From Camelus dromedarius (taxonomy: Eukaryota), in contig NC_087436.1 of NCBI RefSeq assembly GCF_036321535.1, positions 25,484,001 through 25,548,000 of the forward strand: a stretch of 64,000 bases of DNA. The letters run 5' to 3'. Under the pieces are notes generated by a model. That model had not been told where the DNA came from. It saw only the letters and a program-made list of their open reading frames with translations, and ran no database searches. Shown in pieces: positions 2,497 to 59,080 of the stretch (the first letter of the stretch is position 1; the number at the start of each line of letters is the position of its first letter). The translations under genes were made by a program, and so were the position numbers.

Positions 2497-5240
2497 TATA
2501 AAAGTATATCACCTAATAATAGGGCTTTAAAATATATGAAGCAAAAATTGACAGTACTTATAGGGGAAATAAACAAATTCACAATAATGTTTAGGGACCT
2601 TAACACACTTCTCTTAGTTATTGATAGAGGAACTTGACAAAAGTAATGATTAAGGATAGAGAACATCTGATTGACACTATCAACTATCTTAGCCAAATTA
2701 ACATTTAAAGAACACTGCATCCAATAACTACAGAATGTGCATTCTTTTCAAGTACACACAACACATTCAATAAGGAAGATTATCTGCTGCACCATAAAAT
2801 AAGTCTCAATAGATTTCAAAAACAAATAATGAATCTCCCAAGAAATCTTTTTTGACTACATACAATAGAATTAAATTAGAAAGCAGTAAAAATGTAACAT
2901 TCAGAAAAGCACTCAACTATCTGGAAATCTGACAAATCACACATATCTCACAGGTAAAAAATAAATAATAAAGAAAATTAGAAAATATTTTGAACTAGGT
3001 AATTATAAAAATAAAACACCAAAATCTGAAGCATTTATCTAAAGAAACACTTAAAAGGAAATGTTTAACTTTAAATGTTTCTTTTGGAAAAGAAGAAAAG
3101 AGTCTGAAATTAATTACCTAATCTCCCACCTTGTGAAGTTTGAAAACAAACAATGAAACTTAAGTAAGTAGAATGGTAGAAAATAAAAACAAGATTAGAA
3201 ATTAATAAAATAGAAAACAGATGAATAGAGAAAAAATTTTAAAGTCCAAAGTTGTTGTTAGAAAACATCAACAAAATTGATCATTCCCTAGACTGAGATT
3301 AAGAAAAAAGGAGAGAGAATACAATTATCAATGCCAAGAATGAAACAGTGGGCCCTGCTGAAAATCCTGCAAAAATTACAAGTGTAAGGGAACATTAGAA
3401 CAACTTTACACCAATAATATTGACAAATGAAGAGAAATTCCTAAAGACATAAATTACCAAAACTAGTAAAAGAAATCTTAAATAAATCTTAAATAGAAAA
3501 ATTTAATCCTCATGTATCTATTAAAATAATTGAAATAGTAATCAAAACCTTCCCACAAAGAAAACTTCAGGCTCAGATTGTTTCATTGTTGAATTGTATC
3601 AGATATTTAAGAAGGAAAAGATTTTTGAAAAATTTCTTCTGTCTAGCACAGGGAACTGTAGTCAGTATCTTGTAACAATCTTTAATGAAAAAGAATATGA
3701 AAACGAATATATGTATGTATATGCATGACTGGCACATTGTGCTGTACACCAGAAAGTGAAACATTGTAACTGATTGTACTTCAATACAAAAATTTTTAAA
3801 AAGAAGAAATACTAAGCCAAGATGAATGCTTTCTACAAATAGGTAAGTAGGAAGTAGTTCCCAACTCATTTTATTTGGCTAAGATTCCTCTAAAACCAGG
3901 TAAAGACATCACAAAAAATTAACTTGAAATAACTTCATGAACATCAATGCAAATTCCTTAATAAAATATTACCAAATAAAATCCAACAATATATAAAAAG
4001 AATAATATATTAGGACCAGGTGGAGTTTATCCCAGAAATACAGCTTTAACATAAAAAAATCAATTTTGTATTTGGAAGATTCAAAGATCTCTTTAAACTT
4101 AATAAGAAGTAAACGCATAATCTGATTAATAAATGGGCCAAAGACTAACTGATACCTCAACAAAAAAGATATGCAGATGGAAAATAAGCATGTGAAAAGA
4201 TGCTCCACATCATATGTCATCAGGGAAATGCAAATTAAAACAACGAGATACCACTCCACTATTGGGATGGCTGAAATCCACAATACCTAAACATTAAATG
4301 TTAGTGAGGATGTGGAGCAACAGGAACTCTATGTTGCTGAGGGGCACGCAAAATCACATAGCCATTTTGGAAGTTGGTTTGGCAATTTATTATAAGCAAA
4401 CATAATCCTAACATATGATCCATCCATTGTACTCCTAGGTGTTTACCTAAATAAATTGAAAACTTACGTCCAAAACAAACAAACTTATGTCCTGCATACA
4501 AATGTTTATAGCAGCTTTACCAAAACTGAGAAGCAACAAAGTATCCAAGGTGTCCTTCAACAGGTGAATGGATAAACAAACTGGTAGGTCCATAGAATGG
4601 ACTATTACTCAGTGATGAAAAAAGATGAGATTTTGAGCCATAAAAAGAGATGAAGGGACTTTAATGCATATTGCTAAGTGAAAAATCTAGTCTGAAAAGT
4701 CTTCATACTGTATAATTCCAACTATATGGCATTCTGGAACATGTAAAATTGTAGAGACAGTAAAAAGATCAGTTAAAAGATCAGGCTTCCCGTGGTTGGG
4801 GAGCAGAGGGCAAATGGATGCATAGGTCAAGTTTAGGAGATTATCAGGGCAGTAAAACTATTCAGGATGATACCATTGTGGTGGATACATGATGTTATGC
4901 ATTTGGCAAAAGCCATCAAACTATACAAAACAAAGAATAAACCCAAATGTAAACTATGGTCTTAAATAATAATGTATCAATGTTGGGTCATCACTTGTGA
5001 CAAATGTACCATAGCAGTACAAGATGTAAATAATCAGGGAAACTGTGGTGGGGGGAGAGGGTGCATATAGGAATTGTACTTTCTGTTCACTTTTCTGTAA
5101 ACTCATTACTGCTTTAACAAATAAGGTCTATTAATAAAAATATTTAAAAATACATTTGATTCACCATATCACTAAATAAAGGAGGAAAATTACCTAATTA
5201 TTTCAATACGTGCAGAAAAAGCTTTCATGATAAATAAAAC
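2497..5240 (+). mobile_element. Old L1 fragments (ORF2 endonuclease to RT start, then ORF2 end and 3'UTR; L1MB/MC-like), degenerate
   Basis: Translation 'ISPNNRALKYMKQKLTVLIGEINKFTIMFRDLNTLL' resembles the L1 endonuclease; 3'UTR motifs such as aaatgtaaactatgg and acaaatgtacca; many stops. Confidence 0.85.
3635..3800 (+). mobile_element. Short young L1 3' end (camelid-type) nested in older L1
   Basis: tagcacagggaactgtagtcagtatcttgtaa...aacattgtaactgattgtacttcaat followed by an A-rich tail; same motif recurs at 10900, 30170, 41220, 42800 and 53640. Confidence 0.8.
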
Positions 5241-6738
5241 ATCTTTGCAAATTAGGAAAAGGTATGTGAAAATACATTTGCCTTCAAGCTGGTCTAGGGT
5301 AGCTCCATGTTTAAGTTTGTTAATGCTTGGAAATCTGGTACTGACTCTTGGCCACGGTGAAAATAAACTGTGCTACCTAGTACTTTCAATGTGCTGGTTA
5401 AAGTTCACAGTTTCCCTGGAGACAAAATACTCTTGTGTCTATTGTTAACTGAAAATGTATTATCAATGATTTACATCTAGTTTAATTGGTTACATAGCCT
5501 GGTTTTAGGTACTTTACCAGTGGAGTACAGAGGATTGTGGAGTATTGTGTTTTGACTTCCCTGAAACTAAGACTAAACACATAGTTTGAAAATGAAGGAT
5601 ATTCTGTGTAACCAAGAAAAATCCCTGGGGGCTGTGCTTAAAAGTTTTCTGATCTCTGAGATGATTTCTTGCAGTTCCTTTCTCTTGCTGTACCATATCC
5701 CTTATCTTTATGAACACCTTTACAGGAGTTTACCCTGTGGATGTTCTTTCAATTACCTGATTAATTGCTGCAGTTGGCATGGTGAGCAAGTTAATTGTAA
5801 TACTCTTGACTCAATAATATAAATAATTGCTAAGACTTAGTGTAGGAAAAAGAAAGATGAGGAATGGCAGAATGGAGAATATGCAGAGCCAGGATGGCTT
5901 CCTGACCACCTCTGCTTTGAGGTCCTCAATCACTGTGACAACTGAAAGGAAGAAACACTTATCAGTGGGAACTGGAGACATTAGATCTACAACAGCAGGG
6001 AGTAGCCAAATGGATTCTTAAAAATTCAAACAAAGGGGAGGTTAGCCCCTTAATATGGTACTTTGGTTGCTTTTGATTGCTTTGGAGAAAACAAAAGTAA
6101 CTGATAAAAATCTCAAGGCTGTCAAGCTCTCAAATTACAGTCCATGAACCTGTGTGTTCAGAGGACAAACATGACACCAAAGAAAGGTAGGCTTTTTTTT
6201 TTTTTTTAATGAAATGTGATTCTCATCCAATAATAAATCACTGCAAGGATTATATGGATTACAGGAGATATGAATTAAGATACACCTAAAAGATGGGAAT
6301 ATTGATTCAAATGGTTAAGTCATTTTGTGGAACATTATTAGTAGATTTATTCTAAGACATTATTTAAATAGATCATTGGTGATCAGGGAGCTATTCCCTT
6401 GTATTAGATGTTACTAAATGAAAAGGCACATTTGGTCTTAACTCAGGATCTTCATTAACTTCCACTTTGCAGGAAATATAGCTAGATAGACAAACTCCCA
6501 AACTGTTGAATGACATAAAGTAGAGATAGGTAATTTACAGCCTGAGAAAGAAATTGTCCAAATCCATCCCAAGCTATTAAATGGAATACTGTTTCTGAGG
6601 CTGCTGAAATGTGGGACGTGCAAACACACGTGGATTCGTTTTAATGATGATACAGAAGTAGTCAGTAACTCTATGCCTTTGACCAAAGTGATGTTTGATG
6701 CTGTGAGAAAGGAGTTTCCAATTGCTTATTTGGAGACC

Positions 6739-7557
6739 GAGGACGGGCTCCAAAAGAAGTGACGGGAAAGCTGCCGACAGGGGGCTCCCCCTCCCCCAGA
6801 GAGCCCTCTTCCTGTTAAGACTGTGAGAAGCGGCCCCCAGGGCGATGAGAAAGGCGGTGGAAAGGTCAGGTGGCCAGGCCCGGTTGGGGAAGCCCTTCCA
6901 GCTCCTGGTTCTGCTTCAGTTCCCTCATCCTGTGTCGGCAGCGCCGCAGGAATCTCATTATCTTCCGGGCTGCCTGGTCTTGCTTTTTGGTGAGAAAGGA
7001 GCCTTTGTTTCGGGCAGGCAGGCTGCCTGTGGGCCGGTGGGGAGGCCCAGGCCGGCGGCGGTAGGAGCGGTAGTGCTGCTGGATGAGTACTGCTGCTCTG
7101 CGGCTCTGCTGAAATCGCTTCTGTTCGTAGTAGCTTCGGAACTTGCTCTGGATCAGGATGGCTGCCTGGGTCATCTTCTTATAGAGTGCAAACTGCTTGT
7201 ACTTCCGGTAACAGCGCTGGATCACAGCTGCTGCTACCTCCTGCTGCTCCTTCAGCCGCCGGCCCTTGTACTTTCGGAAGGCTGTCTGGATGACCCGGGC
7301 TGCCTCATACAGTTCCCGCTGCTCATGATCCGATAGCGTCAGCAGGGCAAAATCACTCTCCATCTTGCCACTGGCAGACGCAGAGAGAAACTCGGCGCAG
7401 GAAGGTGCTGGAGGGATAGCCAGGCGACCCCGCTCTAAGGGCAGTTCGCTGGGAGGGGCTGAGCTGGGGAAATGGTCCACATTCTCCAGGTAGCTGGCCA
7501 GCCAGGACATGGTCTCGCTGAGCCCCACAGCCCCCGTCCGCTCCCGCATTGGGTCTC
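6739..7557 (-). pseudogene. CAMTA2: Processed (intronless), 5'- and 3'-truncated CAMTA2 retrocopy: last ~227 codons plus ~127 nt of 3'UTR
   Basis: GC/CpG-rich island in AT-rich DNA. The translation matches the recalled CAMTA2 C-terminus continuously across what are several exons in the parent gene. No poly(A) tail. Confidence 0.93.
6866..7549 (-). CDS. CAMTA2: Intact 227-aa ORF: CAMTA2 C-terminal fragment with tandem IQ calmodulin-binding motifs; lacks CG-1, TIG and ankyrin domains; expression unknown
   Basis: MRERTGAVGLSETMSWLASYLENVDH...IQTAFRKYK...IQRCYRKYK...IQSKFRSYY...IQQHYRSY...ELEGLPQPGLAT*. No stop or frameshift. In-frame TAG six codons upstream in the flank. Confidence 0.55.
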   Translation of the reverse strand: MRERTGAVGLSETMSWLASYLENVDHFPSSAPPSELPLERGRLAIPPAPSCAEFLSASASGKMESDFALLTLSDHEQRELYEAARVIQTAFRKYKGRRLKEQQEVAAAVIQRCYRKYKQFALYKKMTQAAILIQSKFRSYYEQKRFQQSRRAAVLIQQHYRSYRRRPGPPHRPTGSLPARNKGSFLTKKQDQAARKIMRFLRRCRHRMRELKQNQELEGLPQPGLAT

Positions 7558-7720
7558 CAATTCCCTATTGTCAGAACAGGGTCACATAAGGCAGAGTGAT
7601 GTGACAGGTGTTGTGGAGTACTTCCTTGCTGAGCTTCCCCAGTACGGGGTGGAGTAATGGGAAAATAGTTGCAATTTAAGAAGTAAACAATACAAATTAA
7701 ATGCATGAAATACCCATGGA

Positions 7721-7761
7721 GCAATTAAACCAAGTAGAAGGGCAATTAAACCAGGTAGAAG
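7721..7761 (+). repeat. 21-bp tandem duplication
   Basis: gcaattaaaccaagtagaagg followed by gcaattaaaccaggtagaag. Confidence 0.9.
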
Positions 7762-9097
7762 TGTTCAGATAGTTAATTAAAACAAGACATAAAAAAGGAA
7801 GAGATAGATGAAATAGCTATTAAAAATTTACTGGGTTACTATAAAAAAAATAGGTGGTTTAGCTACTCTCCACCCCTAATACTGCACAAAGACCACAGTG
7901 AATTTATTGTTTGCTATAGCTTTGATGAATTTTAAAAAATAACACAAAGGAGGAATGTAAAATTCCTTCTAAATAGTGCCAATTAAATGTTGTGAAGTAA
8001 AGGAGATGCTATAATTTTGAGTGGCAGGATGACTAGGATCTTTTAGTGTAACCCCAGCAGGGGACCAAGTCCATTTGCCTTAATAAAATGGTCTAGATAT
8101 GGTGAATAAACTTTATTGTGACTTCTTGACACTAGTGCACAAAGTACTGTCATAACTAAACTCATTAATCAAAGCCTAAAGGGCAATAGAATTATGTTAA
8201 GAAGATACAGTGATGCCACTATAAAAGACTTCAAAGTATGAGGAAGAATTTAAGAACAAATGTTACCTATGATTACTGTCCCACCCCATCAGTGTGTATA
8301 ACTGTAATGGGACAGATGTTTGAATGGGAGACTATGTCCTTTTCCAAACCATTGGAAAAGGGATATCATTCAAATCTGCTGTCATACTATTTTAATTTGT
8401 ATGCCTAATAAGAAACTTTACATTACCTAAACATACTTCAGTGGTTAATTTAAAGCAGTATCAGATACCTTGGAGAATATCAACACATTTCAGCTTTAAT
8501 TAAGGATATTTTAGATCCAAATCTCTCAGTACCCACAAGTTCTTTCTTTAGCAGTCCAGTATGGTCTAGAGAAAAGGTGATGGGTCCAGGAGGTTAACTT
8601 TAGACTACAGAGGACTACGTGGAGTGTTGCCTTCAACAGCATCAGTTCTTCCCAATGTGCGGTTAATTCAAACTGTCCTAGAAACTAAAGCAGATTCGGT
8701 GTTCAATTTGGCTAACATTTTCTTTTCAGTAACTACTTCAATTTTTTTTAAAGAAGAAAATTGGGGGTAAAAAGCCAGAACCAATGTGCAATCATGTGAG
8801 ACAAACTCTAATATACATTCAGAATCTATAATATTGTGCTTACATAGGGATATTTAAATTCCCTTATTGCCAGAGTCTAGAGAGAAGGACTTATACTTGA
8901 AATTAATATTAAATTGGAAGTACATAATACACACGTGTGTGTGTGTATAATATTGATGATATGTTGATTCTCGATTGGTAAATCAAGCTCAGATTGAGTT
9001 ATAAATTCTGGTTAATCATATAATTTCCAGTGTGAAGCTGGTTATTCTGGATAAGGTATACTGTTTATCACAAATGGGAAAATTCTTGGGAATATTC

Positions 9098-12000
9098 AAT
9101 TAGCAAATCAAATCCAATAATGTATAAAAGTAATCATTCATCATGATCAAGTAATATTTATCCCAACTATGGAAGGCAGACCCAAGATTTGAAACTCAAT
9201 TATTATAATTTATCACATAAACAGGCTAAAAAACCCTGAATCACATGATCATATTAGTAGATGTAGAAAAAACATTTGACAAAACCCAACACTCATTCAT
9301 GATAAAAACTCTAAGGTAAACAAGGAATAGAAGAAAATTATCTCAACTTTATAAAAAATATACACAAAATTACTACAGCTAATATCATACTTAATGGTGA
9401 GAAAACTGAAGCTTACCTACTAAAATCAGGTACAACACAAGATGCCCCCTCACCAGGCTTTTTAAACATCACACTAGAAGTCCGTGTTAATGTAATAATC
9501 AAGAAAAGGAAATAAAAGTTATACAAATTGGGAAGAAAGAAAGAAAAATTGTCTTTGATCACAGATGATGTGATCATCTATGTATAAAATTTTTAAAAAT
9601 TGACAAATTTCTGGAATTATTAAGCAAATCTGGCAAGTTTGCATGATATAAGATTTATATATGAAATCACTTCTCTATACATTAGCAATGAACAAGTGAA
9701 TTGGAAATAAAAAACACAATGCCATTTATATTAGCACCCCCCAAAATTGAATGCTCAGGTATAAATCAAGCAACATATGTACAAGATCTATATGAGCAAA
9801 ACTACAAAACCCTGCTGAACAAAATTAAAGAAAAACTGAATAGAGACAAATTTCATGTTTATGGATAGGAATATTCAATGTTGTCAAGATATCAGTTCTT
9901 CCCAATTTTATCTGTAGATTCAATGTAATCCCTGTCAAAATGCCAGCTAGTTATTTGTGAAAATTGGCAAACTAGTGTTACTTTATATGGCAAGGCAAAA
10001 GACCTACAATAGCCAATGCAATACTGAAGGAGAAAAACAGAGTTGGAGGACTGATGCTCCCAACTTCAAGCCTTCCTCTAAGTCTATGATAAGCAAGACG
10101 GTGTGGTATTGGCAAAAGAATAAACAAATCAATGGAACAAAAAAGAGACCAGAAATTGACCCATGTAAATATGGTCAACTGATCTTTGGCAAAGGAATAC
10201 AGTCCACACAATAGAACAAAGACAGTTTCTTCAACAAATAGTGCTGGAACAACTAAACATCCACATGCAAAAATAAATACATAGGAGAAAAGGGAGATCT
10301 CCTACATTGTTGGTGGGAATGCAGTTTTGTGAAGCCATTATGGAAAACAGTATGGAGATTCCTTAAAAGAACTAAAAATAGACTAACCATATGATCCAGC
10401 CATCCCACTCTTGGGCATATATCTGGAGGGAACTCTAATTCAAAAAGATGCATGCACCCCAGTGTTCACAGAACTACTATTTACAATAGCAAAGACATGG
10501 AAACAATCTAAATGTCCACAGACAGATGACTGTATAAAGAAGTTGTGAAAATTGGAAATTTTCCACCTGGAAAATTCCATATATACAGTGGAATACTACT
10601 CGGCCATAAAAAATAAAATAATATCATTTGCTGCAACATAGATGGACCTGGAGATTGTCATTCTAACTGAAGTAAGCCAGAAAGAGAAAGACAAATAACA
10701 TATGATATCAATAATATGTGGAATCTAAAAAAAGACACAAATAAACTTATTTATAAAACTAAAACAGACTCATGAACATAGAAAACAAACTTATAGTTAC
10801 CAGGGGGCAGGCAGGAAGGCAGAGGGAAGTGATAAACTGGGAGTTTGAGCTTTGCATATACTAACTACTATATGTAAAATAAACAACAAGTTTATACTGT
10901 ACAGACAGGGAACTATATTCAGTATCTTGTAGTAACCTATAATGAAAAAGAATATGAAAATGAATACATGTATGTATATGTATGTATGGCTGAAACATTA
11001 TGCTGTACGCCAGAAATTGACACATTATAAACTGACTATACTTAAATAAAAAATAAATACATACACAAATAAATCCAGATATAGCCCTTACACCCCTCAC
11101 AAAACTTAACTCAAAATGGATCACAGGCATGCATCTAAAATCCAAAACTATGAAACTACCATAAGGTAATAAAGAAGAAAACCTAAATGATCTTTGGAAT
11201 GATGATGACTTTTTAGATAAAACGCCAAAGGCACAATCTACAAAATAAAAATGGGTAAGTTGGACGTCATTCAAGTTAAGAACTTCTGCTCTATGAAAGA
11301 CAATGCCAGGCAAATGAAAGATGACTTACAGACTGGAAGAAAATACTTGGAAAAATATCTCTGATATAGGACATTCATTGAAAATATACAAAGATCTCAA
11401 AACTCAACAATAAGAAACTATACAACCTTATCAAAAATGGGCCAAAGACCTTAAAAGACACCTCAACAAAAAGACATACCAATGGAAAATAATCATATAG
11501 ATAGATGCTCCAACTCTTATTAGGAAAATGCAAATTAAAACAATAATGAAATACCACTACATCTATTAGAATGGCCAAAATCTGGCACAATGAGAATACT
11601 AAGTGCTGATGAGGATGTGGAGCCACAGGAACTCTTATATGTTGCCGACAGAAATGGAAAATAGTAGAGCCACTTTGGAAGAGTTTGGCAGTATCTTACA
11701 AAACCAAACACACTTTAACCACAAGATCCAGCAATTGTAATCCTCAGTATTTACCCAAAGAGTCTAAAACTTATGTCCACAAAAAGTCTGCACGTGGATG
11801 TTTATAGCAGCTTTATTCATAATTGCCAAAACTTGGAGGCAACCAAGATGTCTTTCAGCAGGTGGATGGGTTAATTAACTGCAGTACATACAGACAATGG
11901 AATATTATTCAGCACTAAAAAAACCCCCCATCTATTAAGCCATAAAAAAGACAGGTAACTTAAATGCATATTATTAAGTGAAAGAAGCCAATTTGAAAAA

Positions 12001-12435
12001 GCTACATACTGTATGATTACAATTCTGACATTACGGAGAAGGCAAAACTATAAAGGCAATAAAGAGATCATTGATCTCTAGCAGCTGGGAGTAGAGGGGA
12101 CAGGTAAAGAGGTGGAGAACAGAGGATCTGAAGGTCAATGAAAATACTCTGTATAATGTCATGATGGATACATGTCATTACACAGGTGTCCAAACCTATG
12201 GAATGCACAACACCAAGAGTGAACCATAATGTAAACTACATAATTTGGGTGGTTATGATGTGTCAATGTTGGTTCATGAATTGTAACAAATGTACCATTC
12301 TGTGGAGGATGTTGATAATAGGGGAGGCTATGCCTGTTTAGGAGCAGGGGATATAGGGGAACTCTCTGTACTCCCTCTTGATTTTTCTGTGAACCTTTAA
12401 CTGCTCTAATAAAAGAAAAGTCTTAATAAGAAGAA
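9098..12435 (+). mobile_element. 5'-truncated old L1 (RT region to 3'UTR, L1MC-like)
   Basis: ORF2 motifs (AEKAFDK-like gtagaaaaaacatttgacaaa, KTVWYWQKN, YGQLIF); 3'UTR ending ...ctgctctaataaaagaaaagtcttaat. Confidence 0.88.
10284..11048 (+). mobile_element. Younger camelid-type L1 3' fragment with perfect 15-bp TSD
   Basis: TSD aaaaataaatacata at 10269-10283 and 11049-11063; ORF2 C-terminus and 3'UTR lie between them. Confidence 0.9.
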
Positions 12436-38656: not shown

Positions 38657-38815
38657 AATTTTTTTAATTTTTAAATTTTTCTACTGAAGTGTAGTTGATT
38701 TACAATGTTTCTTTCTTTCTTTTTTTTTTTTCCTTAATGATGGTATTGGGGATTGAACCCAGGACCTAGGGCATGCTAAGCATTTGCTCTACCACTGAGC
38801 TATACTCTCTCCTCC
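38657..38815 (-). mobile_element. tRNA-derived SINE (Vic-1-like) with an L1-3'-like tail inside one TSD
   Basis: Reverse complement reads ...tatagctcagtggtagagc (A box)...gggttcaatcccc (B box), A-rich linker, aacattgtaaatcaactacacttcag, A-rich tail. TSD aaatggtaatg(c)tttt at 38642 and 38816. Confidence 0.88.
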
Positions 38816-58029: not shown

Positions 58030-59080
58030 TGTGGTAGGCAGAGTAATGGCCTCCCAAAGATATCCAAGTTTAATCACCAGGAACTATGAATAGTTTAGGT
58101 TAAATGCAAAGAGCAATTAAAGTTGCAGATGGAATTGAATGTGTTAATCAGCTGACCTTGAGATAAGAAGATTATTCTGGGTTACTCAGATGGGCTCAAC
58201 ACAATCACAAGATTTTTTATAAGCAGTAGAGGGAGGTGGAAGAGAGAGAACCAGCGACATAGTAGCACAAGAAGGAATCCCCTTGTTAGGCAGTTAGATA
58301 AGTGGGAGCACCATGCAGATGAGGTAGAGGAGAGGGAGACGGTCTGGAAAATGGTGATAAGCCCGCCTTCAACATAAGGGGCTTTACTTCCTCTAAACGA
58401 GTGGCAGCAAGAAACTGGTTGGGATTGGATGGCCACAACTGCACTGTCGACAAGGACCTAACCAGACATGACCCAATGCTGACTGCATTATAATTAACAC
58501 TGCTGTTTAGCCCCACTCCCCCGTGGGTTCTTCTGTGTGCATCATGAGTAAGGAAATGCACAGAGGGGGACGGGCATGACTAAGCATTCCAGGGATGAGA
58601 GCTGTCAATCAAGAGGCTGCCTCCAAGTAAGGGTAAAAGACCAGGGACAAAGAAAGACCGGGACTGCCATCCTCTCTTCGATCAACTTGCCCCCGCTCTT
58701 GGAGGTGTACTTTTGCTTTACTAATAAAATCTTTAAAATCTTCAACTACACGATGCTTTTGTCTCCCATCTGAAGCCTTCTCTTTTGAGCAAGACAAGAA
58801 CTGAGGCTCTCCCCTTTTGGGGTAACACCCTCACATTGCTCATTCTGTAGATTCAGGAACGGGCCATAAATAAAAGAATGTTGGTGGTCTCTAAAAGCTG
58901 GAGAAGGCCAAAAAAATGGATTCTCCTCTAGCATCTCTAGAAAGCAGGGTAGCCCTGACTGTAGCCCAGGGAGGCCAATTTCATGCTCTGACTTCCGGAA
59001 CTGTAAGACTATATAAGTCTGTGTTGTTTTAAACTACTACATTTATAATAATTTGTTACAGCAGTCACAGGAAACTTATA
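58030..59080 (+). mobile_element. MLT1D-like MaLR LTR split by a younger ERV LTR
   Basis: tgtggtaggcagagtaatggcctcccaaagat...ttaaagttgcagatggaatt...aagctggagaaggcc...tttgttacagcag. Confidence 0.88.
58284..58827 (+). mobile_element. Young ERV solo LTR (544 bp)
   Basis: TGTTA...TAACA termini, perfect 4-bp TSD ccct (58280-58283 and 58828-58831), AATAAA at 58723, several retained CpGs. Confidence 0.9.

Follow-up and report, generated by a model that had tools for sequence, protein, structure and literature searches.

Products of LINE-1 usually carry short microhomologies and duplications of 14–16 bp (Kojima 2010, PMC2912911), and the canonical 5′-truncated LINE-1 processed pseudogene combines these with intron loss, a poly(A) tract and a TT/AAAA insertion site. 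Tailless retropseudogenes, truncated at their 5′ and 3′ ends, have no oligo(A) and end inside their template (Noll et al. 2015, PMC5322556); in the accessible part of that paper, tailless forms with truncation at both ends are called common, a filter admits target-site duplications of 8–35 nt with at least 70% identity, tailless copies are defined by a 3′ truncation of at least 10 nt without oligo(A), and the class is characterized by a target match of 2–18 nt, A-rich priming and a TT/WAAAAWW site. Class 2 templated sequence insertions (Onozawa and Aplan 2016, PMC5110952) consist of spliced cDNA without a poly(A) tract or cryptic signal, are joined through microhomology, may be accompanied by a microdeletion and, according to the available text, lack a target-site duplication. 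Here we compare with these systems a fragment of the gene for the calmodulin-binding transcription activator CAMTA2 that lies in a window of 64,000 nt, the whole stretch of dromedary DNA that was analysed.

A genome search located the source of the fragment on contig C16 of the same genome, where six exons (G000:C16:18344690-18346553) match the minus strand of the window at 6731–7558 in 824 of 828 nt, with no indels; upstream CAMTA2 exons are also present at the parent locus. The fragment consists of the final 110 nt of one exon, four complete exons and the initial 199 nt of the last exon. The parent has five introns with GT-AG borders (246, 205, 305, 167 and 113 nt), and all are precisely missing, leaving exact splice junctions after positions 7449, 7265, 7193, 7005 and 6930. 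The copy thus arose by reverse transcription of spliced CAMTA2 RNA; a piece of 828 nt, truncated on either side, became integrated within an old repeat of contig C1. The 5′ end of the piece lies 87 nt into a parent exon, and at neither end is there a poly(A) tract. Its GC content is ~0.60, compared with 0.33–0.40 in the flanks, and its observed/expected CpG ratio is 0.53 versus 0.03–0.09. The original prediction of an mRNA-derived, intronless, GC- and CpG-rich segment of ~820 bp is therefore borne out; it also recognized a real insertion, but the edges that it placed at 6739 and 7557 actually lie at 6731 and 7558, shifts of 8 and 1 nt.

The copy differs from its parent by four substitutions: one nonsynonymous, two synonymous and one in the untranslated region (UTR). 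The sole amino-acid change in this copy, W51C, is encoded at position 7397, and the corresponding residue is W in the related copy of Camelus ferus as well as in the parent. The three silent differences comprise a synonymous change at 7091 and a 3′ UTR change at 6824, both with loss of a CpG in the copy, and a synonymous change at 7331 where the copy keeps the CpG; retention of this CpG suggests that the change at 7331 probably occurred on the parent side. With four substitutions in 828 nt and a related entry in C. ferus, the fragment is a young copy of the IQ tail of CAMTA2 only, as had been proposed, and belongs to the camel genus. A more distant match (82%) to two of the insert exons at G000:C14:65962077-65962205 (L009) is presumably the paralogue CAMTA1.

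On the minus strand, an open frame of 227 residues begins at 7549, with a Met that is internal in the parent protein, and runs to the native stop at 6866, undisabled as predicted. It corresponds to the last 227 residues of CAMTA2 and contains four IQ-type motifs beginning at residues 87, 110, 133 and 156 (7052–7291, minus strand), which were detected by PF00612 and PF24609 above cut-off and by pattern match, and all four of which are identical to those of the parent. IQ motifs and calmodulin are a well-established pair. In contrast to full-length CAMTA2 relatives, in which CG-1 (PF03859), TIG (PF01833) and ankyrin (PF12796) domains precede the IQ motifs, the insert has no DNA-binding, TIG or ankyrin part, and it also lacks the promoter, the 5′ UTR and most of the 3′ UTR. 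The first ATG does lie near the insertion edge, 9 nt inside it rather than ~8, and its weak context was correctly described: C stands at −3, and A occupies that position at the second ATG (7510). The start Met corresponds to V, I, L or P in the CAMTA2 of pig, cow, elephant and rat; judged by this comparison, it is an incidental internal codon of the parent. A human entry named ‘CAMTA2 protein’ (UniRef100_Q8N5H1, P0005; 221 residues) begins with this second Met and has a 7-residue insert missing from the camel copy; this entry is probably a partial cDNA and not evidence for a natural short isoform. Beyond the insert, on the minus strand of the flank, possible poly(A) signals include the AATAAA at 6346–6351 that had been pointed out and a closer ATTAAA at 6640–6645 that had been overlooked; unless they are used, these are chance hexamers of AT-rich DNA.

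The 3′ junction places the copy among tailless forms. The original prediction noticed neither the missing tail and the 3′ truncation nor the flanking repeat, the complementary ends and the change W51C at an invariant residue. After the stop codon the insert retains 135 nt of parental 3′ UTR (6731–6865, minus strand), ending mid-UTR ~630 nt short of the likely parental signal, an ATTAAA at C16:18347187, and the flank follows directly, with no A tail, poly(A) tract or cryptic signal. The insert is bounded by an imperfect repeat in which 12 of 14 nt agree, with a 3′ copy at 6717–6730 and a 5′ copy at 7556–7569 (both minus strand); the final 3 nt of the 5′ copy double as the opening 3 nt of the insert. 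This candidate target-site duplication passes the filter of Noll et al. as given in the accessible text. A repeat as good was produced in only 3 of 400 simulated blunt insertions at random sites in the same old DNA, and a true duplication is therefore favoured. Against this, in a relative of the host element on contig C36 the flanks of the insert align to successive segments ~9 nt apart, which argues weakly against a duplication, the relative being distant (63% identical) and single. The insertion site is not TT/AAAA, as the 5′ repeat copy begins with AATA and is preceded by AC. Neither does the 3′ junction offer an A-rich priming match: the parent continues C-rich and has at most 1 nt in common with the target.

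With the canonical 5′-truncated LINE-1 pseudogene (PMC2912911, as far as its available text goes) the insert shares intron loss, 5′ truncation with microhomology and a candidate duplication of a length near the 14–16 bp peak, but it differs in its missing poly(A), its truncated 3′ end and its site. With the tailless class (PMC5322556) it shares the absence of oligo(A) and a 3′ end inside the template, whereas a target match of at most 1 nt and the absence of both an A-rich priming site and a TT/WAAAAWW target separate it from the class as characterized in the part of the source at hand; since the signature of internal priming is missing, the insert resembles this class rather than being a strict member of it. 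With class 2 insertions (PMC5110952) it has in common the spliced cDNA, the absence of poly(A), the junction microhomology and a possible microdeletion, yet the 12/14 flanking repeat sets it apart from the duplication-free insertions described in the accessible text. Capture by a retroviral integrase or a DNA transposon, which the TG...CA-like inverted ends might recall, was rejected on three counts: the end sequences come from the parent, the inserted piece had been spliced, and a duplication of 4–6 bp does not fit. A 21-nt tandem duplication (95% identical) was noticed in the host element at 7721–7761, 160 nt from the insert.

We consider it highly probable that the insert is a dead, or not yet used, doubly truncated and tailless fragment of a processed pseudogene that most likely does nothing. 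LINE-1 reverse transcriptase acting in the germ line would have begun synthesis inside the 3′ UTR, without using the poly(A) tail, and halted 87 nt into an exon; 5′ joining would then have proceeded through the 3-nt microhomology, leaving a duplication of ~14 nt that now has two mismatches. The insertion presumably preceded the split of this genome’s lineage from C. ferus, or the allele may have crossed later. Without a promoter, the copy would since have been changing with no visible selection.

The alternative that survives best concerns the route of insertion and would also suit a dead copy. A double-strand break might have been patched by endonuclease-independent, RNA-templated repair as in class 2, with a few nucleotides deleted rather than duplicated; panhandle-forming ends would have kept the two termini together at the break and fixed the breakpoints. 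The missing poly(A) tract, the site that is not TT/AAAA and the 3′ priming match of at most 1 nt all agree with such a patch, as does the alignment of the flanks to successive rather than identical segments of the C36 relative; the rarity of comparable flanking repeats among the simulated insertions speaks against it, and the C36 relative is remote and the sole one found. On balance we regard a break patch as possible but clearly the less probable route.

The idea of a panhandle derives from the ends themselves. Perfect 7-nt inverted repeat arms, both of parent sequence, lie at 6732–6738 and 7552–7558, and the complementarity extends to 14 of 18 nt (78%; 6730–6747 with 7543–7560). Of 20,000 end pairs drawn at random from this mRNA, 11 attained a complementarity of 7 nt, and the energy of the 20-nt end duplex (−24.8 kcal/mol) was equalled by 7 of 5,000 such pairs, in a post hoc test made after the feature had been seen and on a single case. 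The end pairing probability is ~1 in the isolated fragment but does not exceed 0.02 when a longer part of the parent mRNA is folded; any panhandle would therefore have formed in cut RNA or in cDNA, where it could have anchored the growing end at the place of integration. Moreover, the fold of the whole insert is no better than that of shuffled sequences (z −0.31), and a second CAMTA2 fragment on contig C30 has no complementary ends. We thus consider it doubtful that a panhandle set both breakpoints and left its trace in the complementary ends. Complementary ends go unmentioned in the accessible text of Noll et al. (PMC5322556), and the literature searched, supplements aside, yielded no paper on them. 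If they were general among tailless mRNA fragments, they would offer a new insight into how breakpoints are chosen.

The C30 fragment (G000:C30:12275666-12276110, L012, minus strand) comprises 445 nt of CAMTA2 3′ UTR, is truncated at both ends and has neither poly(A) nor a clear duplication. It shows 10 substitutions and two short tandem-like insertions relative to the parent, and these more numerous changes indicate that it is older than the copy in the window. It crosses no intron, so that it is a candidate for RNA origin only. The occurrence of a second tailless fragment suggests that such CAMTA2 pieces need no function and arise repeatedly. A search for further fragments with 6.7 kb of upstream parent DNA, covering part of the gene, gave repeat matches only.

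The exact 227-residue protein is present in NCBI, UniRef and nr, on two contigs, and UniRef100_A0A8B8U018 has two members, both from Camelus. In the cluster of the insert protein we found XP_032347440.1, a 227-residue ‘calmodulin-binding transcription activator 2-like’ protein of C. ferus, so that the copy is already automatically annotated in this sister species; an automatic ‘like’ annotation is no evidence of expression. The C. ferus protein has the same start and is identical to that of the insert at 224 of 227 residues, with W51 as in the parent and with private N23I and K188R changes. Its gene model lies on a 121-Mb contig and hence not on the 58-Mb parent chromosome. From these likenesses, the C. 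ferus entry is almost certainly the same insertion as the one described here. Among the 15 of 37 cluster members that were listed by name there was no alpaca entry, a weak negative. No paper on this copy was found in the literature searched; subscription papers or supplements could list the locus.

The small number of differences also bears on the state of the frame. After two to four neutral substitutions, and with indels included at an assumed rate, a frame of this kind would stay intact with a probability of 0.74–0.55, which supports the original caveat that the open frame may simply reflect youth (a neutral probability of 55–75%). The frame is most likely open because there have been only two or three coding substitutions so far and because an internal Met happens to lie so close to the edge. 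The count of synonymous and nonsynonymous differences from the parent, which had been proposed as a check, came to two and one and is not unusual under neutrality (P 0.16–0.22, or 0.44–0.52 without the probable parent-side change). The sites of W51C, N23I and K188R are each invariant in all 120 full-length mammalian CAMTA2 sequences compared, the 120 listed of 217 matches, many of them isoforms of one species. Across the tail 176 of 227 positions are invariant, and three random changes would all fall on invariant sites with P 0.47; none of the three changes in the two copies is in an IQ motif. The parent tail differs from that of three whales at two residues only. Three of three changes at invariant sites, next to a conserved parent tail, suggest relaxed selection in the copies, in counts that are small.

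Fewer changes have accumulated than an old split would predict. A split 4.4–7.3 Myr ago and a rate of 1.1e-8 per 5-year generation have been published (PMC7305198, available text). At 2.2e-9 per year over 4.4–7.3 Myr, 8–13 nucleotide changes are expected and 3 were seen (P 0.04–0.001); for amino-acid changes, 9–15 are expected under the same split and 3 were seen (P 0.02 or less). The copy’s own clock gives an age of ~1.6 Myr (0.3–4.8). Gene flow between dromedary and Bactrian camel is put at 6–7% in the accessible part of PMC12337305, and clock uncertainty together with such gene flow could explain the low count; on the sequences compared, weak constraint may also have contributed.

Among the readings that give the copy some activity, low-level passive read-through transcription, for example in germ cells and with no selected role, fares best. 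Shares of locus words were compared across sequencing runs, of which 14 DNA-type runs and 5 RNA runs out of 24 were used; X20 and X24, with small shares, and X21–X23, with 0.00, were set aside. The RNA shares were compared with computed expectations, a comparison that cannot demonstrate expression: X17–X19 contain 0.27–0.36 of the words, near the 0.30 ± 0.03 expected from the parent mRNA alone, and X15 and X16, which carry a reproductive-system label, contain 0.65 and 0.55, where the insert alone would give at most 0.35. The flank words that X15 and X16 must therefore hold would agree with passive transcription. The contigs of these two runs, however, amount to 939 and 839 million letters, or ~40% of a genome of 2.3 Gb; background alone would supply that many flank words. 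Passive transcription accordingly strikes us as improbable.

The original prediction further saw in the fragment a candidate calmodulin buffer or dominant-negative retrogene. On this reading a promoter in the flank would drive a camel-specific mini-protein of 227 or 214 residues that binds calmodulin but not DNA. It would serve as a buffer or compete with full-length CAMTA2, and its frame would have been maintained in two lineages of Camelus. The intact frame that a functional retrogene needs is indeed present in both known copies, the four IQ motifs are unchanged, candidate poly(A) signals lie downstream, the change count falls below the old-split prediction, and NCBI has entered the C. ferus copy as a protein. 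Calmodulin is, moreover, thought to be limiting, and it is bound by worm CAMTA via IQ domains (PMC8428840, available text). All three amino-acid changes nevertheless strike invariant residues, the open frame is expected by chance, the start Met is incidental and not conserved across mammals, the copied piece contains no promoter, and the RNA word shares fit parent mRNA plus background. The functional proposal was thus not supported, and we judge an expressed IQ-only retrogene to be very unlikely.

An assembly or laboratory artefact such as a cDNA chimera, suggested by the missing tail and by a hexamer at both ends that we take to be a type IIS restriction site, has a negligible chance of being correct, as both hexamers are parent sequence, the copy has substitutions of its own, a differently changed sister copy is annotated in the assembly of another species, and the share of locus words is 0.90–1.00 in all 14 DNA-type runs, where a genome lacking the insert should give 0.86 ± 0.02. 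This DNA may itself derive from one of these runs, and the same sampled words were used in all, so that the shares lend modest support to the presence of the insert in DNA data.

Mammalian genomes hold many such fragments, and as it stands this one matters little. It does call for some caution: the ‘CAMTA2-like’ protein entry of C. ferus is probably not a gene, and, at 99.5% identity, the copy can mislead read mapping and variant calling in the six terminal exons of CAMTA2. Presence or absence of the insertion can serve to trace camelid history. Were the copy expressed, its product should bind calmodulin and would provide a natural test of calmodulin buffering by CAMTA tails.

The insert lies in opposite orientation within an old, heavily broken element on the plus strand (approximately 5800–8700), which we take to be an ERVL-like internal region from protease and RT motifs. 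Pfam assigned it no family in any of six frames, and a genome search for close copies returned one distant relative, the 62–63% match on C36. Outside the insert the window contains at most 13 CpG in any kilobase, and no Pfam family was found in 21 of its 45 tested long frames; no host gene is thus seen in the window, although the short exons of a long gene would escape this search. By eye, fragments on the plus strand that are presumably old L1 flank the host element (~2500–5200 and 9100–12400), with what look like younger L1 3′ ends nested at ~3600–3800 and 10280–11050. A GC- and CpG-richer block at ~58280–58830, likewise seen by eye within an older repeat, is presumably a solo LTR. Finally, a tRNA-Ala-like match at 38738–38809 on the minus strand (Rfam, ARAGORN) bears an A-rich tail and is one of thousands of candidates genome-wide; it is a tRNA-derived SINE and not a tRNA gene.
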